Of a stretch of 64,000 nucleotides of DNA, positions 1-59,095 are shown piece after piece. Position 1 is the stretch's first letter. Each line of letters opens with the position of its first letter. The DNA comes from Candidatus Spyradenecus sp. (lineage in GTDB: Bacteria; Verrucomicrobiota; Kiritimatiellia; RFP12; DVOR01), in contig JAZUPT010000013.1 of assembly GCA_045605345.1 (NCBI GenBank), forward strand, positions 802 through 64,801, in the 5' to 3' direction. A program made the translations under genes and the position numbers. The notes beneath the pieces were generated by a model. That model made no database searches. It had not been told where the DNA came from and was given only the letters and a program-made list of their open reading frames with translations.

Positions 1-1517
1 ACAAGGCTTATAAGGAGTCGCTGATTAAAAGTATTAATACAGTTCTTAATAAAGATGTGGATGAACATAAAGATGATTTGAGTGGTATAGAATTTCCTGT
101 TATAGGGGTTGAGCTAACAAAGTATGATATATTGGATTCTGTATTGATAAAAAGAATAGAGGAGCAGATTCAAATATGCCAAGATATTATTGCGAAATAT
201 AAAGATTATGTTGATAAAAAGCAGGGTAATATATATACACCGATTACTATATCACGAATGGGGCTTTTGGAGTCTGTTAATTTGTTGAATGGTTTACTAA
301 AACAGTTGGATGACAAGCGAAAAGAATTTAATAATATTGTGGGCAGAAAAACCAAACTTGTTCAGCAACTTTTGTCAATTAATAACTTGATTGCGCATGT
401 GCAAATAGAACAAACGCATAGAGATTACAAAAAGCAAACTTCAGTAAAGAAGAAATTGGAAGATGAAGTTTCTGAAAAACAAAAAGCTTTAGATGTTGCA
501 AAAAAAAGATTAAAAGAATTAGAACAACGGAAAGCTAATACTGGTTTAGCTATTGGAAACATAAATCATTCTTTAGACTATGTGTTTTTTGAGCCGGGAA
601 GATTGTCTATTGAGTTGAAGAATGATAGATATTATTTAAAATCAAAAGGTAATGATGTAAAACCAAAAAATGTATCACAAGGTGAACGAAATATAATTGC
701 GTTATGCTATTTCTTTACTCAGATTCTATCGAATCAGGATGTTTTAAAACTTTATAAAAAAGAAATGTTTGTTGTTATTGATGATCCTGTTTCAAGTTTT
801 GATTTTGAAAATAAGGTAGGAATAATGTCATTTTTACGGCTTCAGATTAGTCGAATTATAAACGGTAATCAAAAAAGTAAGATTTTAATTTTGTCACATG
901 ATCTTGAGACAGTGTTTAATTTACGAAAGGCATTGGATGAGATATGTAAATCCACAAAGGAAATGAAGGATTGTAATTCTACATATACGGCATGGGAGTT
1001 GTGTAATGGACATTTAAATTTACTTTTTAATAAATGTAGTGAGTATAAGAATCTCTTAATAAGAATTTATAATTATGCTTATGGGAATATTACTGCCGGC
1101 AACACTACAATTGGCAATGCGATGCGCCGTGTATTAGAGGCGTTTTCAACATTCAATTATCAAAAAGGAATAGAACAGGTTTCATGTGATAAAAATATTT
1201 TAAAAGTCCTTGGCGAGCATTCTGTTTACTTTGAAAATTTGATGTATCGGTTGGTATTGCATGGCGAGAGTCATTATGAGGAACAAGTTAATAGTATGCA
1301 TGATGGAAACAATTTTTATGAGTTTATTTCAGAGGAAGAAAAGCAAAAGACAGCAAGAAATATTCTATGTTTTATTCATTTGCTCAATCCGTATCATTTG
1401 GTTGCGTATTTGAAAGATGAGAAGGATGCAATATCAAATATACAAAAATGGGTTGCCGCCGTGCCAAAGAATTCGGCGTTTAGTGTTAAGACTATATCGG
1501 AGAAGGAGCTTGAGTGA
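1..1517 (+). CDS. AAA_13-type (PrrC/RloC-like, ABC/SMC-fold) ATPase, 5' end outside the window
   Basis: The frame is open from nt 3 (no stop before the track's GTG at 57) to TGA 1515-1517. A long coiled-coil (KRKEFNN...LKELEQRK) is followed by signature-like SQGERNIIALCYFF, Walker B FVVIDDPVSSFD and ILILSHD. The C-terminal NAMRRVLEAFSTFNY block matches what I recall from Pfam AAA_13 proteins. Walker A is expected upstream of the window. Confidence 0.7.
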   Translation, partial: KAYKESLIKSINTVLNKDVDEHKDDLSGIEFPVIGVELTKYDILDSVLIKRIEEQIQICQDIIAKYKDYVDKKQGNIYTPITISRMGLLESVNLLNGLLKQLDDKRKEFNNIVGRKTKLVQQLLSINNLIAHVQIEQTHRDYKKQTSVKKKLEDEVSEKQKALDVAKKRLKELEQRKANTGLAIGNINHSLDYVFFEPGRLSIELKNDRYYLKSKGNDVKPKNVSQGERNIIALCYFFTQILSNQDVLKLYKKEMFVVIDDPVSSFDFENKVGIMSFLRLQISRIINGNQKSKILILSHDLETVFNLRKALDEICKSTKEMKDCNSTYTAWELCNGHLNLLFNKCSEYKNLLIRIYNYAYGNITAGNTTIGNAMRRVLEAFSTFNYQKGIEQVSCDKNILKVLGEHSVYFENLMYRLVLHGESHYEEQVNSMHDGNNFYEFISEEEKQKTARNILCFIHLLNPYHLVAYLKDEKDAISNIQKWVAAVPKNSAFSVKTISEKELE

Positions 1518-4169: not shown

Positions 4170-4188
4170 TAAGGTGACAGTTCTTCTT

Positions 4189-4262
4189 CTTTCCTTTCTG
4201 ACATGCCTTCCTCTGAGCGGGTCTCTTTTTAGCCCCGCGGTTATATTGTGCAATATTCCGGG
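4189..4262 (+). promoter_or_regulatory. conserved ~70-nt intergenic motif, copy A (second copy at 58897-58967)
   Basis: CTTTCCTTTCTGACAtgCCTTCCTCTGAGCGG-N14-CCCGCGGTTAtATTGTGcAATATTCcGGG aligns almost base for base with 58897-58967. Both copies lie upstream of + strand genes for exported proteins. Confidence 0.5.
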
Positions 4263-5289: not shown

Positions 5290-6653
5290 GTTCTGCGGAG
5301 AAGAGCAAGTTTGAATTTACGCCGTGGAATGCGACGAAGTTCTTTTTCCCATTGTGTATTCAGGCGGCGAGTCAGTCTTTGACGTATCCGCTCGTGGGGA
5401 TTGTGGTGGCGCATGGTCAGGGTGGCTCTGCGGAGTACGCGGCATTTGCGCAGGGCTTGATGATTATGTTCTTCTTGGGCACGTTAGGGTATGGCCTTGT
5501 GACCACGGGGATGGTCTATGCAAAGAACCGCATTGGTTATCTGCGCTTTGCGCGGGTGAACTTGATGATTCTCTTACTGGAGGTGGCGGTTCAGATTATT
5601 TTGGCTCTACCAGGGGTGGCACCGCTCGTCTTTGGGAAGTTATTGGGACTTCAGGGGGCGCAATTTGAGGTGGCGCGTTGGTCAATGTTGTGGGCGATGC
5701 CTGCGCAAATTGGGTTTATGCTTCGCAATGTGCCGCAGGTGGTGCTCTATAACGAACACGAGACAGGGATTGCAAATGCGGCAACGATTTTACGTATTGT
5801 GATTACGGCGATTGCGGCGCCAATCTTTTATTGGTGTGGGTTGGTCGGATGGCAATGGGGATGCGTCTGCTTGAGTTTCCCAGTTTTGCTTGAAGCGGCA
5901 ACGATGAAGTGGGTGGCACGCCCTTATGTGCAGCGGTTGCCACGTCGCCCCTCCACGGAGGTGCGTGCGAGCACGGGAACCATCTTTCTCTTCAATATTC
6001 CGCTTTCGTTGGGTGGGATGTTCTTAATGTTTGCGATTTTTATGTTGAATGCGATTATCAACCGTGTGCCGCAGGGACCAGAGATGTTGGCCGTGCATTT
6101 GGTGGCGGTGGGATTGATTAATCCATTGTCCTATGGCGCCCTGCGCAATCAGGCGGTGGCGATTGGCTTCCCGCAACGTGATGCTCGCGATCAACGCACG
6201 CTTTGTTTTGCCCTTGTGAGTGGCATCTGCCTCTCACTCTTTCTCTTAGGGGTGCAGATTCCTTTTGTCTCGGAGTGGTATTTTAGCGAGATGCAGAATC
6301 TGAATGCGTGGCAGGTGCCCTTGGCACGGAATGCGCTCTGGGTGGCAATGCTCTTTCCGGTGTTGCAAGCCCTGCGTGGACATGCAGAGGGTTTGGCCGC
6401 CTTTCGCAAACGTCCGAATGCAGTATTGGCGGGGCAGGCGGTTTTCTTTGGTGTTCTGGTGGCGATGTTGTTCATCCTCTTCTGTTTGGAAGTGCCAGGT
6501 TATCTAATGGGAATTTTGTCGTTGTGCGCGGCATCGGCATCGTCTTTTGTTACGATTCGCGTGGGATTGGCATTGGCTCGCTTGGAAGAGACTGAAGATT
6601 TTCCTGGTGCAGAGCGTGTAGCGCGGATACGTTCTTCCGAACGGCGCGTTTGA
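5286..6653 (+). CDS. polytopic membrane protein, MATE/MOP-exporter-like
   Basis: ATGA overlap with the upstream stop. About 12 hydrophobic segments. The N-terminal region (PLCIQAASQSLTYPLVGIVVAHGQGGSAEYAAFAQG) resembles MATE family openings. The assignment is weak. Confidence 0.45.
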   Translation: MSSAEKSKFEFTPWNATKFFFPLCIQAASQSLTYPLVGIVVAHGQGGSAEYAAFAQGLMIMFFLGTLGYGLVTTGMVYAKNRIGYLRFARVNLMILLLEVAVQIILALPGVAPLVFGKLLGLQGAQFEVARWSMLWAMPAQIGFMLRNVPQVVLYNEHETGIANAATILRIVITAIAAPIFYWCGLVGWQWGCVCLSFPVLLEAATMKWVARPYVQRLPRRPSTEVRASTGTIFLFNIPLSLGGMFLMFAIFMLNAIINRVPQGPEMLAVHLVAVGLINPLSYGALRNQAVAIGFPQRDARDQRTLCFALVSGICLSLFLLGVQIPFVSEWYFSEMQNLNAWQVPLARNALWVAMLFPVLQALRGHAEGLAAFRKRPNAVLAGQAVFFGVLVAMLFILFCLEVPGYLMGILSLCAASASSFVTIRVGLALARLEETEDFPGAERVARIRSSERRV

Positions 6654-20598: not shown

Positions 20599-20842
20599 CT
20601 ACGATAAAGGAGGAGCTTCGCAGAGGGTAGGGCGGCGTCGCCCCCACGTCTCTCTTGTCTTCTAATCACCCGCTATCCAGTGTGGTACCAAACGACGGGG
20701 ATGCTGCGCTCCCCGTACCCCTCGCACCCTTGCCTTTCTTCCTCTCTTTTCTCTCTTCAAAATCCCTTTAAAATCCCTTACGCAGGTGTGTCACTTTTTT
20801 GAAATTTTTAGCGAATTTTCGCCTGTTGAAAACTTTTTTGAG

Positions 20843-20862
20843 TTATCAACAAGTTATCAACA
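20843..20862 (+). promoter_or_regulatory. tandem DnaA-box-like 9-mers TTATCAACA-ag-TTATCAACA (third copy at 21050-21058)
   Basis: Each 9-mer differs from the TTATCCACA consensus at one position. The same doublet plus singleton is present in copy 2 (37347-37366, 37554-37562). Confidence 0.3.
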
Positions 20863-21098
20863 ATACACGTTTTTTGACGCAGTTTTGGGAAAATTTTCTG
20901 GTGAAGCGATGGGTTTTCGGCGCTTTTGCTCGACTTTATTAGAAATGCATAACACATTGAAAAAGAAAGAGATAATGTTAAAACTGGGCGAAATTAACTC
21001 CGCTACAGTCGCTTCCTTGCGAAAAAAAGGGCATCAGGGGGAGGGAAAGTTATCAACAATTTGCCCGTTTTTTAGGGAAGTCTAAAGAAAATCTGGGT

Positions 21099-21160
21099 CA
21101 ATATGGGCGAAACTGAGTCGCAATATGGGCGAAATTGGGTACCCAAAAGAGGCGAAATTG
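21099..21160 (+). repeat. 22-bp periodic iterons CAATATGGGCGAAAYTG (2 full + 1 partial)
   Basis: 21099-21115, 21121-21137 and partial AGGCGAAATTG 21150-21160. An extra GGGCGAAATT lies near 20985. Confidence 0.6.
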
Positions 21161-21182
21161 CGACTCAATTTCGCCTCTTTTC
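21145..21182. terminator. terminator-like hairpin formed by the last iteron and its inverted copy
   Basis: aaaa-GAGGCGAAATT-gcgactc-AATTTCGCCTC-tttt; 11-bp stem flanked by an A-run and a T-run. Confidence 0.35.
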
Positions 21183-21257
21183 AAGACCAATTCTTGAACT
21201 CTTTTTGCCATATTTCTTCCGTCCTGTAAATGACAATTTGACATTTTTCAAAGAATT

Positions 21258-21289
21258 TGCTACACTAAAAGTGTGCGTGAGAGGAAGAG
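21258..21289 (+). promoter_or_regulatory. 32-nt conserved motif TGCTACACT-WWW-AGTGTGCGTRAGAGRAAGRG, copy a
   Basis: Also at 37761-37792 and 58989-59020. It contains an extended -10-like TGCTACACT and the palindrome ACACT-N3-AGTGT. Confidence 0.5.
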
Positions 21290-21402
21290 CGATTCTCTTT
21301 TAGAGAAGGTGTTTTTAGGGATATTACTTAGGATTTAACCTTTGTTAACTGAGGGGTGTGGGTGGTTTTTCGTTTGTGGGTGGTACATGAGTGGGGAAAG
21401 TT

Positions 21403-21453: not shown

Positions 21454-22731
21454 ATGAAGTTTTTTGATTTTCTGAAGTCCCGTCATTTGGTGGATACTTG
21501 CACGTGCGATGAGGCGAAGATGGCGGAGTTGTTGGAGACGCCACAGACGGTTTATGTGGGGTTTGACCCAACGGCTTCGTGTTTGCAGGCGGGTAACTAT
21601 GTGGCGATTCAGACGTTGGCGCAATTCCAGCGTGCGGGTCACAAGGTGATTGCTTTGGTGGGTGGTGCTACGGGCATGATTGGCGATCCTTCGGGGCGTT
21701 CGACGGAACGTAACTTCCTCTCTGTGGAAGAGCTTCAGCGTAATGTTGAGGGGATTAAGGAAAACCTTTCTCGCTTTTTGGATTTCAATCATCCGACTAA
21801 TCCGGCAATTTTGTTGAATAACTACGATTGGTACAAGGATTATTCGGTGTTGCCCTTCTTGCGTGAAGTGGGGACGCTTTTCCGTATGAAGCCGATGTTG
21901 GCGAAGGATTCGGTGCAGAAGCGTTTGAATGCCGAGACGAATTCGATGACTTTCACGGAGTTCACCTACCAGATTCTCCAGGGGTATGACTTCTACTACT
22001 TGAATAAGCATTATGGGTGCACGATGCAGGTGGGCGGTGCGGACCAGTGGGGCAACATCACGGCGGGCACGGACTTGATTCATCGTTTGAATCCTGGTTC
22101 TGAATGCCATGGCTTGACGATTCCTTTGGTGTGCGATGCCAATGGCCAGAAGTTTGGCAAGTCTGCGGGTAATGCAATCTTCTTGAATGCGGATAAGACG
22201 AGCGTTTACGCATTCTATCAATTCTTCTTGCGCACGTTGGATGCCGATGCGATTCGTTACTTGCGCATCTTTACCTTCTTGGATGAAGCACGTATTGCTG
22301 AATTGGAAGCGTCGTTGAAGGAACATCCGGAATTGCGCGAACCGCAGAAGGTGTTGGCTGAAGAGCTGACGCGTGCGGTCCACGGTGAAGCGGGTCTTGA
22401 ATCTGCGCGTAAGGCCTCTGCGGTGCTCTTTGGCGGTTCGTTAGAGGGTCTTACGGCGGCGGATTTGGAAGGCATCGCCTCGGATGTGCCGTCTGCAGAA
22501 CTGGCAAAGGAAACCGTGGCAGCACAGTCCGTGATGGATGTGGTGACGGCGTGCGGTTTCGTGAAGAGCAAGAGCGAAGCGCGTCGTTTGATTCAGGGCG
22601 GTGGGCTTTCCATCAACAATATCAAGGTGACGGATGTGAATGCTACGGTCGCTGATGAACAGTTGATTGACGGCAAGGTGCTCTTGCTTCGCCAGGGGAA
22701 GAAGAATTACTTCCTCCTGCGCGTGAAGTAA
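21454..22731 (+). CDS. tyrS: tyrosine--tRNA ligase
   Basis: GFDPTASCLQAGN (HIGH region), KFGKSAGN (KMSKS) and a C-terminal S4 domain (SKSEARRLIQGGGLSINN). Confidence 0.95.
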   Translation: MKFFDFLKSRHLVDTCTCDEAKMAELLETPQTVYVGFDPTASCLQAGNYVAIQTLAQFQRAGHKVIALVGGATGMIGDPSGRSTERNFLSVEELQRNVEGIKENLSRFLDFNHPTNPAILLNNYDWYKDYSVLPFLREVGTLFRMKPMLAKDSVQKRLNAETNSMTFTEFTYQILQGYDFYYLNKHYGCTMQVGGADQWGNITAGTDLIHRLNPGSECHGLTIPLVCDANGQKFGKSAGNAIFLNADKTSVYAFYQFFLRTLDADAIRYLRIFTFLDEARIAELEASLKEHPELREPQKVLAEELTRAVHGEAGLESARKASAVLFGGSLEGLTAADLEGIASDVPSAELAKETVAAQSVMDVVTACGFVKSKSEARRLIQGGGLSINNIKVTDVNATVADEQLIDGKVLLLRQGKKNYFLLRVK

Positions 22732-32649: not shown

Positions 32650-32723
32650 TGGTTGCCTCACAAGGATTCGAACCTTGACAAACTGATCCAGAGTCAGTTG
32701 TGCTACCGTTACACAATGAGGCA
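32650..32723 (-). tRNA. tRNA-Gln (anticodon CUG), CCA encoded
   Basis: The reverse complement folds by hand as a cloverleaf. Acceptor UGCCUCA/UGAGGCA, D stem GUGU/GCAC, anticodon stem ACUGA/UCAGU with loop CU-CUG-GA, T arm CAAGG-UUCGAAU-CCUUG, discriminator A plus CCA. Confidence 0.9.
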
Positions 32724-32823: not shown

Positions 32824-33106
32824 TTTCATTTCTTCGGCCCTTCGTACTATTTTCTAAAATTTTCTAAACAATTCTAAAAAGTTTCGGACAAAAATTGTAC
32901 TATTTAAGATTTCTTCCCGAGAGGAAATTTCCCCTTAAAATAATTTGCACGGAAAGATTTTGTACTGTTTAAATTTTGCACGGATAGTACAAATTGTACT
33001 GATTTTAAGCTTAAAATTGCCGGCCATAAAATATTCAAGATAAGTTATTGTAAATGAATAAGTTATGGTGCGGTAAATATAGTACAAAGTATTGAAGAAA
33101 TGAAAT
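32824..33106 (+). repeat. MITE-like repeat R1, copy a (283 bp)
   Basis: 12/12 terminal inverted repeats TTTCATTTCTTC/GAAGAAATGAAA. Colinear with R1b and R1c, with an internal ~65-bp duplication. Contains the palindrome AGTACAA-A-TTGTACT. Confidence 0.75.
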
Positions 33107-33112
33107 AACTTA

Positions 33113-33287
33113 TATGAATTTATCCCACTTTTGTACTAATTTTGGAGAAATACAATAGTACAAAATGCATAGCCCCATACTAATTTTTTGGAATGTAATT
33201 TAGCCCCGAAATAAGCTATTAGAAATCAATTACATATGAATGCAAATGCGGCTCCCCAAAATAGTACAATCATCTGAAAAAATGATA
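33113..33287 (+). repeat. repeat R2, copy a (175 bp)
   Basis: Near-identical to 34022-34197 (ATATGAATTTATCCC...GTACAATCATCTGAAAAAATGATA). Confidence 0.8.
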
Positions 33288-33348
33288 CAATTACATATGA
33301 ATGCAAAACGGCTCCCCAAAAATGGTACAATCATCTGAAAAAATGATA
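33227..33348 (+). repeat. 61-bp tandem duplication of the 3' end of R2a
   Basis: Units 33227-33287 and 33288-33348 (CAATTACATATGAATGCAAA..GGCTCCCCAAAA..GTACAATCATCTGAAAAAATGATA) differ at only a few positions. Confidence 0.85.
33323..33331 (+). promoter_or_regulatory. extended -10 element TGGTACAAT for ORF 33370
   Basis: Lies in the second 61-bp unit, 39 nt before ATG 33370, which has SD AAGGAG at 33357-33362. The first unit has TAGTACAAT instead. Confidence 0.45.
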
Positions 33349-34021: not shown

Positions 34022-34197
34022 ATATGAATTTATCCCGCTTTTGTACTAATTTTAGAGAAATGCAATAGTACAAAATGCATAACCTCATACTAATTTTTTG
34101 GAATGCAATTTAGCCCCGAAATAAGCTATTAGAAATCAATTACATATGAATGCAAATGCGGCTCCCCAAAATAGTACAATCATCTGAAAAAATGATA
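34022..34197 (+). repeat. repeat R2, copy b (176 bp)
   Basis: Near-identical to 33113-33287. Confidence 0.8.
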
Positions 34198-34248
34198 AAC
34201 TTAAGTTGGTTTCAACAATGATCTCATTCTTATTTAACTTTGATATCA

Positions 34249-34466
34249 TTTCACTTCTTCAGAGCTTCGTACTATTTTCTAGAATTTTCTAGATAGGTCT
34301 AAAAAGTCCCCGGCCAAAAATTGTACTGTTTAAATTTTGCATGAATCGTACAAGTTGTACTGTTTTTGCTCCTAATGCTACCAGCCTAAAATATTCAAAA
34401 TGAGTTATTGTAAATGAATAAGTTATGGCTCTGCAAATAGAGTACAAAGTATTGAAGAAGTGAAAT
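34249..34466 (+). repeat. MITE-like repeat R1, copy b (218 bp)
   Basis: Termini TTTCACTTCTTC/GAAGAAGTGAAA are again 12/12 complementary. Relative to copy a, the T>C change in the left arm is matched by A>G in the right arm. Confidence 0.75.
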
Positions 34467-36697: not shown

Positions 36698-36931
36698 TTA
36701 TATTCTATAGGATTTCGAAAATTGGTGCAAGACGTGAGCATATAGCAATAATGCAGCTGATGGTTTAGTACAACTTTGGTGGTAGATGTGTACAAAAGGG
36801 AAGGGCGTAATAGCATGCAAAAAGGTGATAGTGGCGGAGAGGCGTAATGTTTTACAGAGGTTTTTACTATGAGTAGCTATTTCGCTTTTACCTATTTGGG
36901 TAGTCTTGAAGAATAAACCCAATGATTTCAC
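36698..36931 (-). CDS. 77-codon ORF immediately upstream of the methyltransferase (speculative; possible precursor/leader)
   Basis: Co-directional and ends 18 nt before ATG 36680. The GTG start lies inside the left terminus of R1c with GAAGGG 8 nt upstream. AT-rich, with no internal Met and no recognisable motif. Confidence 0.2.
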   Translation of the reverse strand: MKSLGLFFKTTQIGKSEIATHSKNLCKTLRLSATITFLHAITPFPFVHIYHQSCTKPSAALLLYAHVLHQFSKSYRI

Positions 36932-37141
36932 TTTTTCGGCCCTTCGTACTATTTTCTAAAGTTTTCTAAATAGGGCTAAAAAGTTTCGGACAAAAATTGT
37001 ACTATTTAAATTCTGTATGAATGGTACAGACTGTACTGATTTTAAGCCAAATGCTACCAGCCTAAAATATTCAAAATGAGTTATTGTAAATGAATAACTT
37101 ACGGCACGGCAAATATAGTACAAAGTATTGAAGAAATGAAA
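36926..37141 (+). repeat. MITE-like repeat R1, copy c (216 bp)
   Basis: Termini are TTTCACTTTTTC/GAAGAAATGAAA (10/12 complementary). Colinear with R1a and R1b. Confidence 0.75.
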
Positions 37142-37601
37142 TATTAAGGTAAAAGAAAGAGAAAAGTGAGGGGGAAGAAGTGAGGAGAAAGGAGAGAGGG
37201 CGCGGGGAGGAGAGGTGGGGGCGGCGTCGCCCCCACGTCATCCCATCTATCCCTTTTCTCCTTTTTCCCCTTCAAAATCCCTTACGCAGGTTTATCACTT
37301 TTTTGAAAATTTTAGCGAATTTTCGCCTGTTGAAAACTTTTTTGAGTTATCAACAAGTTATCAACAATACACGTTTTTCAATGCAGTTTTTTGAAAATCC
37401 TTCGGCGAATCGGCCCATTTTAGGCACTTTTGCTCAACTTTGCTAAAACTGCATAACTCCTTGAGAAATAAGGAGATAAAGCAAAAATAGGGGTAAATCA
37501 ACTCCGCTACAGCGGCTTCCTTGCGAAAATTTGGGGTAGAAGTGGTAGAAAAGTTATCAACAATTGGGAGCTTTTTGGGGAAAGCTAAAGGAATTCCGGG
37601 T

Positions 37602-37662
37602 CAATATGGGCGAAATTGAGTTGCAATATGGGCGAAATTGATGAGTAAAATGGGCGAAATTG
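37602..37662 (+). repeat. 22/23-bp periodic iterons CAATATGGGCGAAATTG (3 copies)
   Basis: Read directly. The last copy pairs with TCGCCCAT (37674-37681), followed by TTTT. Confidence 0.6.
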
Positions 37663-37760
37663 GGTAGGCAAAGTCGCCCATTTTCCCAAGGGAAAACCGC
37701 CTACTTTCCGCGGGATTTTAACTGACTTGCCTCAGCGGAGTTGACGACGTTTCTCCGTTT

Positions 37761-37792
37761 TGCTACACTTTTAGTGTGCGTAGAGAGAAGGG
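37761..37792 (+). promoter_or_regulatory. 32-nt conserved motif TGCTACACT-TTT-AGTGTGCGTAGAGAGAAGGG, copy b
   Basis: See 21258-21289. Lies 159 nt upstream of the argC ATG. Confidence 0.5.
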
Positions 37793-37906
37793 ATTTTTGT
37801 CTAAGATGAAGAATCGTACGCTGAGGTGAAAAGGGGGGCGCCATCTCGAATTGCGAACATTTCAGAAGGGGAGCGTATTTTGGGTCTATATTTATTAATG
37901 TAAATG

Positions 37907-37950: not shown

Positions 37951-39006
37951 ATGGTGAAAGTTAAGATTGTCGGCGCGACCGGTTACGGCGGCATTGGTTT
38001 GATTGAATTGCTCGGGCGTCACCCGGAAGCAGAAATTACGGCTTTGGTGGCGCGTGAGGATGTTGGTAAGCGCGTCTCTGACATTTATCCGCATTTGGCG
38101 GGGTTCTGTGATTTGCCGATTTTGGACGCGGCGGATCCTCAGGCACAGGCTCCTGCAGACATTGTGGTGTTTTCAACGCCTGACCGCGTGGGCATGTTTG
38201 AGGCGCCGGGTGTTTTGAGCCAGGGCGCAAAGGTTTTAGACTTCTCGGGTGACTTCCGCTTCACGACACAAGAAGCCTATGCGGATTACGCCACGCGTCA
38301 TGGGAAAGAACCCGAACATGCGTCTCCAGATCTCTTGGGGCAGAATGCGTATGGTTTGGCAGAGTTGCACCGTGCAGAGATTGCTGCGGCACCTGTGGTG
38401 GGTAATCCGGGGTGTTTTGCGTGTAGTTGCATTCTTGGCTTAGCACCTGCGGCGAAGGCGCGTTTGTTCAACCCCTACAGCGTGATTTGCGACTGTAAGA
38501 CGGGGGTCTCGGGCGCAGGCAAGAAGTTGGCCGCGACCTTCCACTATCCGGCGCGCTATGAGAACATGAATGCGTATAAGCTCGCTGGCCATCAGCACGT
38601 GTGCGAGGTGGAACGTGAGCTCTCCTTGCAGTATGGCGCAGATGTCCGCTTGACCTTTACGGCGCATGTGTTGCCGCTTTGCCGCGGCATTATGAGCACG
38701 CTGTACGCTCAGATGGATGCAGTGCACACGGAAGAGGAATTGGTGGAACTCTACAAGGCCTTCTACAAGGATTCTCCGTTTGTGCGCGTGTACGGTTCGA
38801 AGGCGGCGATTGGCACCAATAGCGTGCAGCGCACGAACTTCTGCAACTTGGTGGTTAGCGTGGATCCTCGCGTCAATCGTCTGCGCGTGGTCTCTTACAT
38901 CGACAACTTGATGAAGGGGCAGGCAGGCTCTGCAGTGCAGAATATCAACCTGATGAGCGGCTTGCCTGAAGCAACTGGCCTGCTCTATTCTGGTTTGTAT
39001 CCGTAA
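37951..39006 (+). CDS. argC: N-acetyl-gamma-glutamyl-phosphate reductase
   Basis: MVKVKIVGATGYGG Rossmann start and active-site GNPGCFACSCILGLAP. The track start at 37906 lies inside the promoter element. Confidence 0.9.
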   Translation: MVKVKIVGATGYGGIGLIELLGRHPEAEITALVAREDVGKRVSDIYPHLAGFCDLPILDAADPQAQAPADIVVFSTPDRVGMFEAPGVLSQGAKVLDFSGDFRFTTQEAYADYATRHGKEPEHASPDLLGQNAYGLAELHRAEIAAAPVVGNPGCFACSCILGLAPAAKARLFNPYSVICDCKTGVSGAGKKLAATFHYPARYENMNAYKLAGHQHVCEVERELSLQYGADVRLTFTAHVLPLCRGIMSTLYAQMDAVHTEEELVELYKAFYKDSPFVRVYGSKAAIGTNSVQRTNFCNLVVSVDPRVNRLRVVSYIDNLMKGQAGSAVQNINLMSGLPEATGLLYSGLYP

Positions 39007-39059: not shown

Positions 39060-40157
39060 ATGAAGAAGACAGCCTCAACTGCGAAAAAGACTCCCGCACC
39101 TGCAAAGAAACCTGCCCCTGCTGCCAAGCAGACGAAAGAACCCGCAAAGAAGACCTCGGTGAAGAAGCCTGAAACAACGCCTGTGGCGGCCAAGGCGGTC
39201 GCGCCGCATCGTGGTTTGGGGCGAGGTCTTTCGGCATTGATTGATGCACCTGTGACGCAACAACGTCCGGGCGTGCCGGTGATTCCGAAGCCTGCGGTGA
39301 CGCCGGTGATTCCGCAGATTCCTGTGGTGAATGAACGCATTGAGGGAAGTGTCTTGACGGTGCCGGTGACGGAGATTGAACGTTCTCCCTGGCAGCCGCG
39401 TCAGACCTTTGATGATGCTGCGCTTCATGAATTGGCAGATTCGATTAAGGCCAATGGCATCATTCAGCCGCTCGTTTGCCGTAAGTTGGAGAATGGTCGC
39501 TTTGAATTAATCGGCGGTGAACGTCGTTTGCGCGCATCGATTCTCGCAGGTTTGACGCGAGTGCCGTTGATCCTCGTCGAGGCAGAGGATCGTAAGGCGG
39601 CAGAGATGGCAATCGTTGAGAACATTCAGCGCGCCGATCTCAATGCGATTGAAGAGGCTGAAGGCTATCGTACGCTCGCAGAAAAGTTTAGTTTGACGCA
39701 GAGTGAAGTGGCAGAACGCGTGGGTAAGGCTCGTCCTTCGGTGGCGAATGCCCTGCGTTTGTTGGAACTCCCTGATGAAACCAAGGCGATGGTGGCCGAT
39801 GGTCGCCTCTCGGCGGGCCACGCAAAGGCATTGCTCGGCTTGGCTCGTACGGAAGATCGCATTCGTTTGGGTCGCCGTGCAGTGGCAGAAAATCTGACCG
39901 TGCGTGCGGTGGAACGCGCCGTGATGCTCGTGAATACGCCGCCACCCGTGCGTCAACCCGCGCGTGATGATTTGCCGCCAGAATATCTGCGTGACCTCAC
40001 GGATCGTCTGCATGCCTTCTTTGGTACGGCGGTGCGTTTGACCTCGGGTAAGACGCTTGCCAATGGCCGTCACATGAAGGGCGTCCTGGAAGTTGATTTT
40101 TACAACAACGATGATTTGGATCGCATCCTGACGTTGTTGGGCATCTCGATTGACTAA
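39060..40157 (+). CDS. parB: chromosome partitioning protein ParB with Lys/Ala/Pro-rich N-terminal extension
   Basis: GLGRGLSALI, GIIQPLVCRK...ELIGGERRLRAS and VENIQRADLNAIEEAEGY. The first ~50 aa are AKKP-type low complexity. Confidence 0.85.
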   Translation: MKKTASTAKKTPAPAKKPAPAAKQTKEPAKKTSVKKPETTPVAAKAVAPHRGLGRGLSALIDAPVTQQRPGVPVIPKPAVTPVIPQIPVVNERIEGSVLTVPVTEIERSPWQPRQTFDDAALHELADSIKANGIIQPLVCRKLENGRFELIGGERRLRASILAGLTRVPLILVEAEDRKAAEMAIVENIQRADLNAIEEAEGYRTLAEKFSLTQSEVAERVGKARPSVANALRLLELPDETKAMVADGRLSAGHAKALLGLARTEDRIRLGRRAVAENLTVRAVERAVMLVNTPPPVRQPARDDLPPEYLRDLTDRLHAFFGTAVRLTSGKTLANGRHMKGVLEVDFYNNDDLDRILTLLGISID

Positions 40158-56737: not shown

Positions 56738-58615
56738 TTAGTTACGCGTCATCAAGGCCGCCACAAGACGGTTGAAGCGCGCGGGGTCAGGCGGCAACGT
56801 TCCTTCGGCGAGGCAGGCTTGACCATAGAGGAGCTCCACGGTGTCGGCGCGCTTGGCGTCATCGGTTTCAGTGGCGAGCGCCTTAATCAGGTCGTGGCCA
56901 GGGTTGAGTTCGAGAATGTGCTTGTCTTCAGGAATTGTCTGCCCCATGGCTTCCATCATACGTCGCATAGTGGGATTCAATGCCGCAGGGTCTTGCACTA
57001 AGCAACACGGAGAGTCCGTGAGGCGAGCGGTTAGGCGCACTTCCTTCACGGTGGCTTCGAGTTGCTTGCCGATGGCATCCAAGAGCGGCTTCATTTCCTT
57101 GCCCGCATCGTCCAAGGACTTCTTCGCTTCTTCATCGGTCAAATCCAAGTCTCCCTTGTCCGCGAAGACAATCGGGGTCTTGTCATATTCGTACATCTCA
57201 GAAGCAATGAATTGATCCACAGGCGTGGTCAGGAAGAGCACGTCATAACCCTTTGCCTTCAGCTGTTCCAAGCAGGGGCTCTGTTGGGCCGCCTGCAGGG
57301 TGTCAGCCGTGAGCATGTAGATGGACTTCTGACCTTCGGGCATCGCTTCCTTGTACGCCTTCAACGAGGTGTACTTGCCATCCTTGAGGTTGCGGAAACG
57401 AATGAGTTCGGTAATCTTTTCGCGGTGTTTCCAGTCGGAGTGATAACCCTCCTTGAGGAAGTCACCGAGGGCAACCGTAAAGGTCTCAAACTGTTCAGCC
57501 TTGTCCTTTGCCATTTCGGCGAGTGCCTTCAGGACGCGGTTGGTCAAGTCCGAGCGAATCTTGCGGATGATGGCATCATCTTGGAGCATTTCGCGCGACA
57601 CATTGAGCGGCAAGTCGCTGCTGTCTACGACACCCTTGATAAAGCGTAACCACGAGGGCATGAGCGCTTCAATCTCATCGCCGATAAAGACATTGCGCAC
57701 GTAGAGCGAGAGGCCATGCTTGTTGCCCGGCATCATCATTTCCATGCCAGCCGCCTTCGGAATGAAGAGCAGTGCGCGATATTCGAGCGTACCTTCTGCT
57801 GCGACGTGCATCACCTTCAAAGGTTCGCCTGTGCCATGCAGGGTCTGACGATAAAAAGCTTCGTATTCTTCGGGCTTAACGTCGCTCTTGGCGCGCTTCC
57901 AGAGTGCCACCATCGTATTGAGCGGCTTGGCTTCATCTTCCGCCTTCTGTGCGGCGGCCTTTTCATCCTCAGGGGCATCGCCTTCTTCGTGCAAGTAGAT
58001 GGGGTAGGCGATGAAGTCGGAGTAACGGCGCACCAAGTCTTTCAGTGCCCACCCCGTCGTGAAGTGTTCCTGATCCGGACGCAAATGGAGCGTAATCGAG
58101 GTGCCAGGCGTCGTGCGAGAGCCTTCATCCATGGTGTACTCACCATCGCCCGCGCTCATCCACTTCACCGCCGTGTGACCTTCGCCGCGGCGAAGCGTTT
58201 CCACGGTGACACCATCTGCCACCATGAATGCAGCATAGAAGCCCACGCCGAACTTACCAATCAATTCAGGGATATTGGCTTCCTTGTCTTGCTTCAATGC
58301 CTCCGCAAAGGCCTTCGAACCACTCTTTGCAATCGTACCGAGTGCATCTTCGGTCTCTTGAGCGGTCATACCAATGCCGTTGTCTTCAATCGTTAGCGTA
58401 TGCGCCGTGGCATCTGCCGTGAGGCGAATGGACCATTCAGGGGCTTCCGGTGCGATGGTCTTGTCGGTCAAAGCAAGGTATTTCGCACGGTCAATTGCGT
58501 CACTTGCATTGGAAATTAATTCGCGTAAGAAAATTTCTTTTTTGGAATAGAGAGAATGAATGACTAAATCCAACATTTGACGGATTTCAGCCTTAAACGC
58601 ACATGTTTTTGCCAT
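56738..58615 (-). CDS. htpG: molecular chaperone HtpG (Hsp90)
   Basis: FKAEIRQMLDLVIHSLYSKKEIFLRELISNASDA, and GKFGVGFYAAFMVA. Confidence 0.95.
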   Translation of the reverse strand: MAKTCAFKAEIRQMLDLVIHSLYSKKEIFLRELISNASDAIDRAKYLALTDKTIAPEAPEWSIRLTADATAHTLTIEDNGIGMTAQETEDALGTIAKSGSKAFAEALKQDKEANIPELIGKFGVGFYAAFMVADGVTVETLRRGEGHTAVKWMSAGDGEYTMDEGSRTTPGTSITLHLRPDQEHFTTGWALKDLVRRYSDFIAYPIYLHEEGDAPEDEKAAAQKAEDEAKPLNTMVALWKRAKSDVKPEEYEAFYRQTLHGTGEPLKVMHVAAEGTLEYRALLFIPKAAGMEMMMPGNKHGLSLYVRNVFIGDEIEALMPSWLRFIKGVVDSSDLPLNVSREMLQDDAIIRKIRSDLTNRVLKALAEMAKDKAEQFETFTVALGDFLKEGYHSDWKHREKITELIRFRNLKDGKYTSLKAYKEAMPEGQKSIYMLTADTLQAAQQSPCLEQLKAKGYDVLFLTTPVDQFIASEMYEYDKTPIVFADKGDLDLTDEEAKKSLDDAGKEMKPLLDAIGKQLEATVKEVRLTARLTDSPCCLVQDPAALNPTMRRMMEAMGQTIPEDKHILELNPGHDLIKALATETDDAKRADTVELLYGQACLAEGTLPPDPARFNRLVAALMTRN

Positions 58616-58728: not shown

Positions 58729-58829
58729 GGTGGATTAGTGGATTCGCGGCTTCGCCGCTGTGGATTACGCACCGATGGCACTGTGGATTACGGTGCTTCG
58801 CACCTGTAGATTACGCTCGTGGTGCTCGC
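58729..58829 (+). repeat. 23-bp periodic array of TGTGGATTACG-type boxes (5 boxes) interleaved with short GC hairpins
   Basis: GGTGGATTA 58729, AGTGGATTC 58737, TGTGGATTACG 58759, TGTGGATTACG 58782 and TGTAGATTACG 58805. Hairpins GCGGC-ttc-GCCGC (58746-58758) and GGTGC-ttc-GCACC (58792-58804). Confidence 0.7.
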
Positions 58830-58896: not shown

Positions 58897-58967
58897 CTTT
58901 CCTTTTGACAAACCTTCCTCTGAGCGGACACTTCTTACCCCCGCGGTTAGATTGTGTAATATTCGGG
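58897..58967 (+). promoter_or_regulatory. conserved ~70-nt intergenic motif, copy B (copy A at 4189-4262)
   Basis: CTTTCCTTTTGACAaaCCTTCCTCTGAGCGG-N14-CCCGCGGTTAgATTGTGtAATATTCGGG. Confidence 0.5.
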
Positions 58968-58988
58968 TGCACATATTTTGCTCTGTTG

Positions 58989-59020
58989 TGCTACACTTTT
59001 AGTGTAAGTAGAGAGAAGAG
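58989..59020 (+). promoter_or_regulatory. 32-nt conserved motif TGCTACACT-TTT-AGTGTAAGTAGAGAGAAGAG, copy c
   Basis: See 21258-21289. Lies 75 nt upstream of ATG 59096. Confidence 0.5.
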
Positions 59021-59095
59021 GATTAAAGGATTCTTTTCTTCGTTCAAGGTGTGACTCGTTTTGCTCGGCAGTTAATTTTCTTAGGAGTGCATTTG

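Follow-up and report, generated by a model that had tools for sequence, protein, structure and literature searches.

What do two stretches of non-coding DNA built like a plasmid origin do in front of tyrS and argC? Both lie in a 64,000-nt piece of a Candidatus Spyradenecus contig (hereafter the window, meaning that whole stretch), and an earlier note on this DNA had described their layout accurately: DnaA boxes, a low-GC spacer, 22-bp direct repeats and an inverted repeat that shares the core of these repeats.

Anatomy of the copies in the window

A family profile run with nhmmer delimits the two cores at 20740-21300 (E = 1e-159) and 37248-37801 (E = 2e-177). Pairwise alignment bears out the claim that they are colinear direct repeats, with 82% identity over 300 nt (20764-21063 / 37268-37567) and 75% over a second aligned segment of 114 nt (21069-21182 / 37572-37685). 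The ~115 nt of near-identity noted before exist as well, but they lie at 20764-20878 / 37268-37382 and not at the start of the copy-1 interval, because in copy 1 a ~97-nt REP-like insert follows the GC hairpin common to both copies. This hairpin marks the left edge of many family members, all of one subfamily, while the REP-like insert belongs to a separate small repeat family that matches L013, L012, L026 and L106 at 83-90% identity and is present twice in L148. The earlier count of two copies was right as far as it went, both being real, but it overlooked a third, promoter-only copy, where strain contig L139 has a full cassette at the orthologous site, and the family is larger. The parts are as follows:

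20630-20645, + strand: GC hairpin module GGGCGGCGTCGCCCCC, at the left edge of copy 1 and outside the conserved core
20657-20753, + strand: REP-like GC-hairpin module (short GC-rich hairpin repeat), inserted, copy 1 only
20740-21300, + strand: core of cassette copy 1, upstream of tyrS (21454-22731; Pfam annotation)
20810-20823, unstranded: 5' palindrome AGCGAA-TT-TTCGCC of copy 1, whose minus strand is the inverted repeat core
20823-20864, + strand: 42-nt block of copy 1, with tandem candidate DnaA boxes TTATCAACA at 20843-20851 and 20854-20862
20992-21024, + strand: near-invariant 33-nt block AAYYAACTCCGCTACAGNNGCTTCCTTGCGAAA of copy 1 (entropy about 0 in 37 copies)
21050-21058, + strand: third candidate DnaA box of copy 1, in the context AAGTTATCAACA, exact in 36/37 copies
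21099-21137, + strand: two 22-bp direct repeats CAATATGGGCGAAAYTG of copy 1
21145-21181, unstranded: bidirectional intrinsic-terminator-like hairpin of copy 1, flanked by an A-tract and a T-tract
21238-21274, + strand: predicted outward sigma-70 promoter of copy 1 (TTGACA, 17 nt, TG-n-TACACT)
21262-21274: palindrome ACACT-nnn-AGTGT overlapping the copy-1 promoter
37217-37234, + strand: GC hairpin module at the left edge of copy 2
37248-37801, + strand: core of cassette copy 2, upstream of argC (37951-39006) and a ParB-family gene (Pfam)
37314-37327, unstranded: 5' palindrome AGCGAA-TT-TTCGCC of copy 2
37327-37368, + strand: 42-nt block of copy 2, with tandem candidate DnaA boxes at 37347-37355 and 37358-37366
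37496-37528, + strand: near-invariant 33-nt block of copy 2
37554-37562, + strand: third candidate DnaA box of copy 2
37602-37662, + strand: three 22-bp direct repeats with a GGGCGAAATTG core, copy 2
37647-37684, unstranded: bidirectional terminator-like hairpin on the third repeat of copy 2 (AAAATGGGCGA...TCGCCCATTTT)
37741-37777, + strand: predicted outward promoter of copy 2 (TTGACG, 17 nt, TG-n-TACACT), with its palindrome at 37765-37777
58977-59031, + strand: promoter-only remnant of a third cassette (TGCTACACTTTTAGTGT...GAGAGAAGAG)

These motifs are concentrated in the copies. The 9-mer TTATCAACA occurs 7 times in the window against about 0.54 expected, and six of these occurrences, all on the + strand, fall in the two copies (starting at 20843, 20854 and 21050 in copy 1 and at 37347, 37358 and 37554 in copy 2); the canonical DnaA-box pattern TTWTNCACA stays at chance level (7 vs 4.9 expected). 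All 5 window matches to GGGCGAAAYTG are inside copies (0.16 expected), and GCGAAATT is nearly restricted to cassettes, with 7/9 of its matches there. The 42-nt block is the same in both copies, and its first 41 nt were invariant across our first alignment of 14 copies. Tandem Repeats Finder (TRF) returned AGTTATCAACA x2.1 in both copies and, for copy 2, a 22-nt period x2.8. The repeat counts given before hold: copy 1 has two full units and a partial one, the latter being the 5' arm of its hairpin, and copy 2 has three. The cassettes also carry the palindrome ACACTnnnAGTGT.

The two hairpins followed by a T-run were also seen correctly, although the run of copy 1 falls one T below the threshold of our terminator scan. 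Their helix covaries in 26 distinct members: it is 85% paired vs 79% in shuffles (0/500 reach the observed value), and 5 pairs change on both sides. The earlier anatomy of repeats and hairpin was sound, but it missed a conserved element at the 3' end, TTGACA-17-TACACT with TG. Across the family this predicted sigma-70 extended -10 promoter reads TTGACn-N17-TACACT preceded by TG, with hexamers, spacer and TG all conserved, and a 5-3-5 palindrome overlaps it. It is not a general promoter motif of this genome, a possibility we rejected since TACACTnnnAGTGT is found in the window only at three cassette sites. Consensus scans also show, in most copies, a leftward promoter over the box doublet and an internal rightward promoter, both with weak hexamers.

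The element is non-coding, as previously claimed: open frames are not conserved across copies and variability has no 3-nt periodicity (p = 0.8). A minus-strand frame, open over a median of 74 codons, was discarded as a protein-coding candidate, having stops in many copies and 1-nt indels. We also dropped a link to the ParB-family gene adjacent to copy 2, as the window holds no canonical parS and the repeat core resembles a parS half-site too faintly to be of use.

A dispersed family with a fixed layout

Non-coding cassettes of ~0.55 kb like the two in the window are scattered over about 45 loci and make up a family specific to this lineage, a species complex of Kiritimatiellae from the ruminant gut that is represented by MAG RGIG7486 and the metagenome assembly JAEIGA01. 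At least 12 full copies, at 75-85% identity, are present in RGIG7486, and 37 further copies were fished from JAEIGA01 with a pattern free of both the DnaA-box and the repeat motifs. Cassettes occupy intergenic DNA, often at contig ends, and their flanking genes are distinct between loci, four orthologous pairs excepted. The family profile run on 465 kb of DNA from the lineage gave no extra diverged copies beyond the anchored ones.

The order of the parts is fixed. The GCGAA-TT-TTCGC palindrome is followed by the two tandem DnaA boxes (AGTTATCAACA x2), a low-GC spacer of ~190 bp that contains the invariant 33-nt block, and the third box; then come the 22-bp repeats, two to four per cassette, the terminator, whose 5' arm is the last repeat, GCGAAAT half-sites and the promoter. 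Paralogues share a median identity of about 70% (maximum 92%), and among them the boxes, the 33-nt block, the GCGAAATTG repeat cores and the extended -10 promoter hold fixed spacing, almost free of indels. Among 37 copies, the exact 9-mer is kept 34 times at box 1, 31 times at box 2 and 36 times at box 3, and the variants are other known forms of the box, e.g. TTATTAACA. The earlier note had considered a simple many-copy repeat in which neither 9-mers nor iterons are conserved. The copies are indeed many, but 9-mers and repeats are their most conserved parts, and this holds even for the copies fished without either motif.

The three 9-mers per copy, a tandem doublet and a singleton, had been called DnaA-box-like, and comparison with other phyla agrees. 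As a 20-mer, the AGTTATCAACA doublet recurs in other phyla: at 44/94 loci there it belongs to an oriC box array with dnaA no more than a few hundred bp away, and four of these dnaA neighbours were verified as DnaA with Pfam. The comparator arrays carry TGTGGATAA, TTATGCACA and TTATTAACA boxes beside the doublet, which in Poribacteria and Limosilactobacillus adjoins GCCCC plus TACTACTAC DnaA-trios. Because the doublet adjoins dnaA within the oriC arrays of other phyla, the cassette 9-mers are credible DnaA boxes, the comparators being oriC loci of those phyla; TTATCAACA is also listed as a variant DnaA box (10.1101/866236; PMC4674748). Cassettes are therefore clusters of at least three credible boxes in non-coding DNA with no dnaA nearby.

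Cassettes are also oriented. At 36/40 loci they run with positive GC skew, and 13/16 pairs on the same contig are concordant. Only 55% of the coding DNA of the window is on the cassette strand, and the bias is partly confounded by coding-strand skew; instead of a replication-linked function, it could reflect the mechanism of insertion, or selection that disfavours head-on transcription driven by a strong promoter.

The family changes in a patchy way. Orthologous cassettes are 89% identical vs 91-94% at third codon positions, and overall they evolve at least as fast as synonymous sites. One orthologous pair shares only 71% identity, although its flanks are 90-96% identical. Recombination between copies (patchy gene conversion) maintains and reshuffles the family. 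Some strains lack the upstream part of the cassette, which together with the fast evolution of orthologues indicates that any single copy is dispensable.

Competing readings of the cassette

Our best reading, held at somewhat less than even confidence, is that of a dispersed promoter/terminator cassette acting at the DNA level and putatively bound by DnaA and a further repeat-binding protein. Two options of the earlier note fit best here, a binding platform for an unknown DNA-binding protein (putatively) and a genome-specific regulatory cassette before tyrS and argC. The gene downstream of the predicted promoter is co-oriented with it at 26/35 loci, and the downstream genes are unrelated housekeeping genes such as tyrS, argC, icd, malic enzyme, fumarase, dnaB and pfk. 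Homologous promoter-bearing DNA thus stands ahead of non-homologous genes, which amounts to promoter reuse. We infer that the function is exerted at the DNA level, the cassette having neither a coding nor a structured-RNA signal and showing covariation in the terminator hairpin alone. In mechanistic terms, the cassette would supply an insulated promoter to the adjacent gene, and a nucleoprotein complex, with DnaA on the three boxes and a second protein on the GCGAAAT repeats and palindromes, would link the state of the replication initiator to dozens of housekeeping promoters. Counted together, the cassettes would give the chromosome some 130 strong DnaA boxes, whose role may lie in DnaA-responsive regulation, in a distributed sink for DnaA, or in both. 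Against this reading, the boxes lie 200-420 bp upstream of the promoter, a distance that is far for classical operator control. The terminator, moreover, is just upstream of the promoter, so something inside the cassette may be transcribed.

The most serious rival, unlikely in our view though far from negligible, is a selfish non-autonomous mobile element that would use its conserved motifs to propagate itself. A transposase or recombinase would bind the 22-bp repeats, as happens at the ends of Tn7 or Mu, and DnaA (and IHF) would be host factors recruited as at the IS50 end; the terminator and the outward promoter would serve only to insulate the element and so render its insertions tolerable. 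The dispersal over about 45 loci, with copies often found at contig ends, presence or absence that varies between close strains, GC hairpin modules at the left edge and an orientation bias relative to replication of the type seen in replication-coupled ssDNA transposons all point this way. So does one orthologous site with a very different member (71% identity, with flanks at 90-96%), and the dispensability of single copies fits a selfish element too. The box doublet is also a candidate match to the IHF consensus WATCAANNNNTTR. Against this, terminal inverted repeats, which a MITE would carry, do not appear across 37 copies: comparison of the left end with the reverse-complemented right end gave a mean z of 0.68, with z > 3 in 2/37 copies. 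The apparent AAAATCCCTT...ACGCA terminal match of copy 2 is not shared by the family. A transposase gene is not a regular neighbour either (one IS1595 gene among 49 loci), and as there are no near-identical copies there was no recent burst. Two promoter-only alleles are known, L148 and window 58977-59031, and we recovered no true empty site; both of these natural deletion variants retain exactly the promoter module and differ in their end points, which speaks for deletion rather than precise excision. Nor did the cassette have any match in 72,556 plasmids, 50,697 phages or IMG/VR. A selfish origin does not exclude later co-option by the host.

The regulatory reading can be extended into a genome-wide, replication-co-oriented network of origin-like DnaA/repeat sites. 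With some 130 strong boxes it would buffer the initiator in a distributed way, a kind of 'datA/DARS built from a dispersed repeat', and it would also couple dozens of housekeeping promoters to the replication cycle; in a variant, the cassettes would be latent origins with a trans-acting initiator that binds the repeats. We consider this extension quite unlikely.

Very doubtful, in turn, is the idea that the cassettes are orphan iteron-type origins, each combined with a rep promoter (oriV plus P_rep; pSC101, pPS10 and F are examples), which an initiator encoded elsewhere would serve or titrate, as latent origins or as incompatibility/handcuffing sites. The order of parts does fit this class (boxes, low-GC spacer, 2-4 22-bp repeats, inverted repeat, promoter), and copies differ in having 2 to 4 repeats, a variation known from iterons. 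However, a rep gene is missing behind all 35 promoters that were examined, the loci number about 45 where one would be expected, and the plasmid, phage and viral collections above hold nothing similar. Less clear-cut is the spacer, which has 40-41% GC vs 51% in the window and in which we saw no markedly AT-rich, 13-mer-like stretch. The inverted repeat, about 55-60 nt upstream of the -35, behaves as a covarying terminator hairpin, and GC skew does not flip at cassettes. The dispersal of the loci, the promoters without rep and the searches of plasmid, phage and viral records likewise speak against the proposal in the earlier note that the copies are relics of an integrated replicon origin.

A multicopy small-RNA gene is a long shot. 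A weak internal promoter (TTGAnA-16-AAAAAT) would give an RNA of ~185 nt from the invariant block, carrying the third box and the repeats and ending at the hairpin, with the repeats as protein-binding or pairing motifs at the RNA level. Such an RNA would account for a covarying terminator where no gene transcript is expected, most upstream genes being divergent, and for a promoter-like site at the same position in 31/37 copies, just upstream of the most conserved block. Yet the hexamers of this promoter are weak and its putative spacer is more conserved than its -35. A consensus structure was sought and rejected, with RNAalifold giving -14 and -12.5 kcal/mol over 594 columns for the two strands, so that nothing besides the terminator is predicted to fold in common. 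Single-copy folding z-scores are inconsistent (-1.4 and -4.0), and Rfam gave no match at gathering score nor at E <= 1. The terminator has an A-tract on one side and a T-tract on the other, a symmetry that an insulator would be expected to show, and we know of no sRNA with dozens of gene copies.

Finally, a chromosomal replication origin, or active secondary origins, is close to refuted, and the rejection of a chromosomal oriC in the earlier note holds: the three boxes are of a kind that oriC regions of other phyla employ, but no dnaA or dnaN is nearby (tblastn found DnaA neither in the window nor at any cassette locus), cumulative GC skew, computed as that note proposed, rises monotonically through the window with no switch and is positive on both flanks of most cassettes, the boxes are followed by ATNCACNTTTTT and not by a DnaA-trio array such as the GCCCC plus TACTACTAC of the comparators, and there are dozens of copies.

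Implications and known systems

If DnaA binds the cassettes, this lineage would have dozens of evenly scattered strong initiator-binding clusters, oriented with replication and each fused to the promoter of a core gene. They would offer a natural system in which to test initiator-titration models of replication control, and would be an example of a repeat family rewiring many housekeeping promoters at once. Even if selfish, they would represent a new kind of bacterial repeat, with sites for the host initiator and the layout of a plasmid origin. Our literature search found no publication describing such elements, and an origin-like design as a genomic repeat has not been described before. On the practical side, the family breaks assemblies, as the many copies at contig ends attest, and automatic oriC finders that rely on the number of DnaA boxes can be misled by cassettes.

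The origins of iteron theta replicons (pSC101, pPS10, F/RepE, R6K) have DnaA boxes at the edge, a stretch of lower GC, ~22-bp repeats, an inverted repeat and a promoter. Cassettes share this order of parts, the 22-nt period over 2-4 units with its GCGAAATTG core, and the flanking boxes. They differ in that their promoter comes without a rep gene, their inverted repeat is upstream of the promoter instead of over it and is terminator-like, they are present in about 45 chromosomal copies and not once per replicon, and they lack similarity to any plasmid or phage record searched.

E. coli datA, DARS1 and DARS2 and the DnaA-box clusters of B. subtilis regulate the initiator or transcription away from oriC. 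Like the cassettes, these are strong boxes in non-coding intergenic DNA, with sites for accessory proteins and near promoters. They are, however, unique loci and not homologous copies of a repeat, and none has 22-bp repeat arrays, a built-in terminator or a common promoter; such clusters are bound by DnaA and alter the DnaA-ATP level or the timing of initiation, whereas DnaA binding by the cassettes, and any effect on initiation, is putative. With IS200/IS605-derived or REP/RAYT elements the cassettes have in common the orientation bias relative to replication (36/40 loci; 13/16 pairs). Those elements have subterminal hairpins at both ends and a cognate Y1 (HUH) transposase; in the cassettes a GC hairpin is seen at the left edge, in one subfamily.

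T5-like phages carry paired DnaA boxes in their injection-stop region (bioRxiv 10.1101/866236). The variant box TTATCAACA is found there too, in close pairs outside a replication origin, but only at one locus of the phage, for which a role in DNA injection has been proposed, and with neither promoter cassette nor dispersal. Putative mobile promoters are homologous promoter regions before non-homologous genes ('Promoter reuse in prokaryotes', PMC3575422). These, and the Correia elements of Neisseria, are like the cassettes in being intergenic, non-coding, promoter-bearing copies ahead of non-homologous genes. The cassettes differ in lacking terminal inverted repeats and in being much longer (0.55 kb), old and diverged, with a strict architecture of boxes and repeats and an orientation biased with respect to replication.

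A divergent family of non-coding cassettes

The two colinear homologous stretches of the earlier note were recovered by pairwise alignment, which is colinear between a GC hairpin present in both and a point ~30 nt beyond a shared promoter, and by a repeat search of the window, which paired 20764-21063 with 37268-37567 (300 nt, 82% identity) and 21069-21182 with 37572-37685 (114 nt, 75%). The 9-mers and 22-bp repeats it described also stood: TTATCAACA has 7 occurrences in 64 kb where 0.54 would be expected, six of them within the two copies and all six on the plus strand, and GGGCGAAAYTG occurs five times in the window, confined to the two copies. TRF returned AGTTATCAACA x2.1 in each copy; in copy 2 it also gave a 22-nt unit (x2.8). 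Overlooked until now were a strong sigma-70-type promoter at each copy's 3' end (TTGACA/TTGACG, 17 nt, TACACT preceded by TG) and a third, promoter-only copy:

20740-21300, core of cassette copy 1, before tyrS
37248-37801, core of cassette copy 2, before argC
58977-59031, third copy, promoter only

Searching the box doublet in one genome per species gave more than 106 loci in many phyla; among the matches listed, homology past ~40 nt was limited to the Kiritimatiellae MAG RGIG7486 (water-buffalo colon), with at least 12 loci at 75-85% identity across 400-680 nt. A metagenome search with AACTCCGCTACAGNNGCTTCC, a block holding neither boxes nor repeats and hence giving a box-independent sample, yielded 37 more copies, every one in assembly JAEIGA01, which may mix strains and has close relatives of the window (95% nt across 11 kb) and of the MAG. 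Because flanking proteins all differ save in four orthologous pairs, ~45 distinct loci are documented, a minimum, copy numbers being lower bounds from pattern-limited searches. In 465 kb of DNA from the lineage a profile HMM turned up no further diverged copies, and there was no similar sequence in IMG/VR, INPHARED phages or PLSDB plasmids.

The 37 full copies are 59-92% identical (median 70%) and, despite this divergence, have near-zero-entropy blocks in common, with almost indel-free spacing. Cassette cores have 39-41% GC, versus 51% for the window. The features of the cassette are:

Block 1, first in order: 5' palindrome GCGAA-TT-TTCGC
Block 2: invariant, 41 nt, containing GAGTTATCAACAAGTTATCAACAAT
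Block 3: TTTTT-GACGCAG-TTTTTTGAAAA
Block 4: region CATAAC...AAAGAGATAA
Block 5: invariant, 33 nt, AAYYAACTCCGCTACAGNNGCTTCCTTGCGAAA
Block 6: AAGTTATCAACA, 196 nt past the second box
Block 7: two to four 22-bp repeats, CAATA-nnn-GCGAAATTG
Block 8: hairpin formed on the last repeat, with an A-tract and a T-tract on its sides
Block 9: more GCGAAAT half-sites, in both orientations
Block 10: promoter, with palindrome ACACT-nnn-AGTGT across the -10 and start region

Two weak promoter-like sites accompany them, a plus-strand TTGAnA-16-AAAAAT ~16 nt 5' of the invariant block (31/37 copies) and a minus-strand TTGATA-17-AAAAGT over the box doublet (30/37), whose -35 lies within the DnaA boxes. Such sites could give an internal transcript, or a leftward promoter occluded by DnaA.

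DnaA-box identity

That the cassette 9-mers are DnaA boxes is credible from comparative sequence data. In the box-independent sample the exact 9-mer is found at box 1 in 34/37 copies, at box 2 in 31/37 and at box 3 in 36/37, the variant forms being TTATTAACA, TTGTCAACA and TTATCTACA. Among the matches listed, dnaA lies within a few hundred bp of the same 20-mer in 44/94 non-lineage loci (tblastn, with a B. subtilis DnaA query), and Pfam confirmed Bac_DnaA and Bac_DnaA_C in four of these hits. At non-lineage dnaA loci the doublet sits within arrays of canonical TGTGGATAA, TTATGCACA and TTATTAACA boxes. Beside dnaA in Poribacteria (L062, L069, L084, L088, L094) and Limosilactobacillus (L074), TTATCAACA is followed by GCCCC and TACTACTAC(TAC), which is a DnaA-box/DnaA-trio unwinding module; the variant box thus serves bona fide origins in those phyla. 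Two papers also list it as a variant DnaA box, one for T5-like phages (10.1101/866236) and the other for a predicted Cyanothece origin (PMC4674748). Across the window, canonical TTWTNCACA boxes occur about as often as expected by chance.

Genomic context and strain polymorphism

In 26/35 loci the first ORF downstream runs in the promoter's direction, and in 23/33 the first one upstream is divergent, ORF calls being crude. The genes downstream have no relation to one another, most being housekeeping genes (tyrS, argC, icd, malic enzyme, fumarase, dnaB, pfk, lepA-like, gmk-like, surface proteins), with no replication initiator among them. Of the 40 loci having >3 kb of flank, 36 carry the cassette in the direction of the G-rich strand (binomial p ~1e-7), local coding-strand skew being a partial confounder; only 55% of window coding DNA lies on that strand. 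Orientation is shared by 13/16 same-contig pairs.

Two orthologous sites differ between strains in cassette content. Where the window retains only the -10 and downstream part, contig L139 carries a full cassette; upstream of tyrS, two contigs (L148, L151) have the promoter module only, and the window and three others (L143, L146, L147) the full cassette. Since end points are unlike and the promoter is kept every time, these alleles suggest deletions that arose independently, with selection keeping the promoter. Orthologous cassettes differ patchily too, at 0.893 identity versus 0.91-0.94 at flanking genes' third codon positions and, in a second comparison, 0.940 versus 0.968, the conserved blocks being unaffected. 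Between L105 (2391-3052) and L107 (1257-1886) flanks are 90-96% identical and the cassette only 71%: another family member has replaced or converted the cassette in one of them. Together these patterns indicate that ectopic gene conversion, or replacement of one copy by another, is ongoing.

In this lineage intergenic DNA is a patchwork of small repeat modules. Other elements seen were:

32824-33105, 34248-34466, 36926-37141: MITE-like element (~0.2-0.3 kb), TIRs ~30 nt, TTTCATTTCTTCGGCCCTTCGTACTATTTT / AATATAGTACAAAGTATTGAAGAAATGAAA, in a low-GC (42-45%) stretch beside a tRNA gene (32653-32723, minus strand); the third abuts cassette copy 2
33227-33348: 61-nt unit, tandem x2.0, 93% identity; another identical copy 0.85 kb off (34137-34197)
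58738-58816: 23-nt repeat GTGGATTACGC... x3.5, upstream of htpG (56738-58615, minus strand), expanded in the orthologous L139 (10900-11090); its TGTGGATTA, one mismatch off a DnaA box, has only two exact copies
20657-20753: REP-like GC-hairpin module (…CCAAACGACGGGGATGCTGCGCTCCCCGTACCCCTCGC…), separate from the cassette and inserted in copy 1; also beside cassettes in L012, L013, L026 and L106, and twice at L148 2445-2620, in a strain without the tyrS cassette
4184-4258, 58898-58927: dispersed ~75-nt module (TTTCCTTTTGACAnnCCTTCCTCTGAGCGG…), close to promoters and 5' UTRs; also L013 4704-4777 and L141 2015-2090
1-4022: low-GC island (34-41%) that may be mobile or serve defence, with genes for AAA_13, DUF6161 and T5orf172 domains; holds the sole TTATCAACA outside cassettes in the window (209-217, minus strand)
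39060-40157: ParB-family gene (ParB_N, HTH_ParB, ParB_C; Lys/Ala/Pro-rich N-terminus), directly 3' of argC and so downstream of cassette copy 2; parA is absent beside it, and the 64-kb window has no canonical parS, matches at <=3 mismatches being at chance level

An IS1595-family transposase gene (DDE_Tnp_IS1595) begins 73 nt downstream of the L121 cassette (~5486-6048), the sole transposase beside any of 49 copies. A test for TIRs came out against the cassette being a TIR-type MITE.

Interpretation and known systems

The cassette's signatures, conservation and dynamics are directly visible in its copies. They fit best, we tentatively propose, a DNA-level composite in which an insulated outward promoter lies behind a rigid protein-site array. 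This array would comprise three DnaA boxes, direct and inverted GCGAAAT repeats for another, putative protein, and an operator-like palindrome; we infer DnaA binding, the repeat binder's identity and any regulatory or titration role. The main rival, possible but rather unlikely, holds that the cassette is a selfish non-autonomous element and that its motifs work for its own propagation; this is compatible with the composite reading.

Boxes and 22-bp repeats had led the earlier note to a plasmid-origin-like layout. That the cassettes are orphan origins of an iteron replicon is nevertheless doubtful: they are numerous, have no rep gene or plasmid relatives, and lie where the skew does not flip.

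The element is non-coding, as first proposed: open frames are inconsistent across copies and variability lacks 3-nt periodicity (p = 0.8), which rules out a protein-coding cassette. Structured RNA is ruled out by RNAalifold energies of -14.0 and -12.5 kcal/mol (two strands, 594 columns) with a positive covariation penalty; single copies gave folding z-scores of -1.4 and -4.0, and an Rfam search 0 matches. The exception is the hairpin with its T-run, noticed earlier and here found to be one real helix: across 26 distinct sequences, 85% of cells pair versus 79% in shuffles (0/500 reach 85%), five pairs are altered on both sides, and slid controls fall to 33-47%. Stem types include TGG/CCA, GAG/CTC, CTA/TAG and AGG/CCT, and loops are very different. 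The symmetric A and T tracts give it the look of a bidirectional intrinsic terminator, the T-run of the window copies being one T below a simple scan threshold. Set beside this helix on one side and the folding results on the other, a multicopy sRNA that would start at a weak internal promoter and end at the terminator is improbable. Active origins are extremely improbable: no dnaA was found near cassettes and GC skew, monotonic along the window and positive on either side of most cassettes, does not flip, which speaks against a replication origin and agrees with the earlier view that a chromosomal oriC is not supported.

A literature search found no paper on such a cassette family. In layout the cassette works like a pSC101/pPS10-type oriV with P_rep, but no rep gene or plasmid relatives were found and it is not a unique locus. 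As clusters of DnaA boxes away from an origin and close to promoters, cassettes are akin to datA, DARS and the B. subtilis DnaA-box clusters, which are unique loci. They also fit 'promoter reuse' (PMC3575422), as homologous promoters before unrelated genes, although they are far larger and more elaborate than the elements described there.
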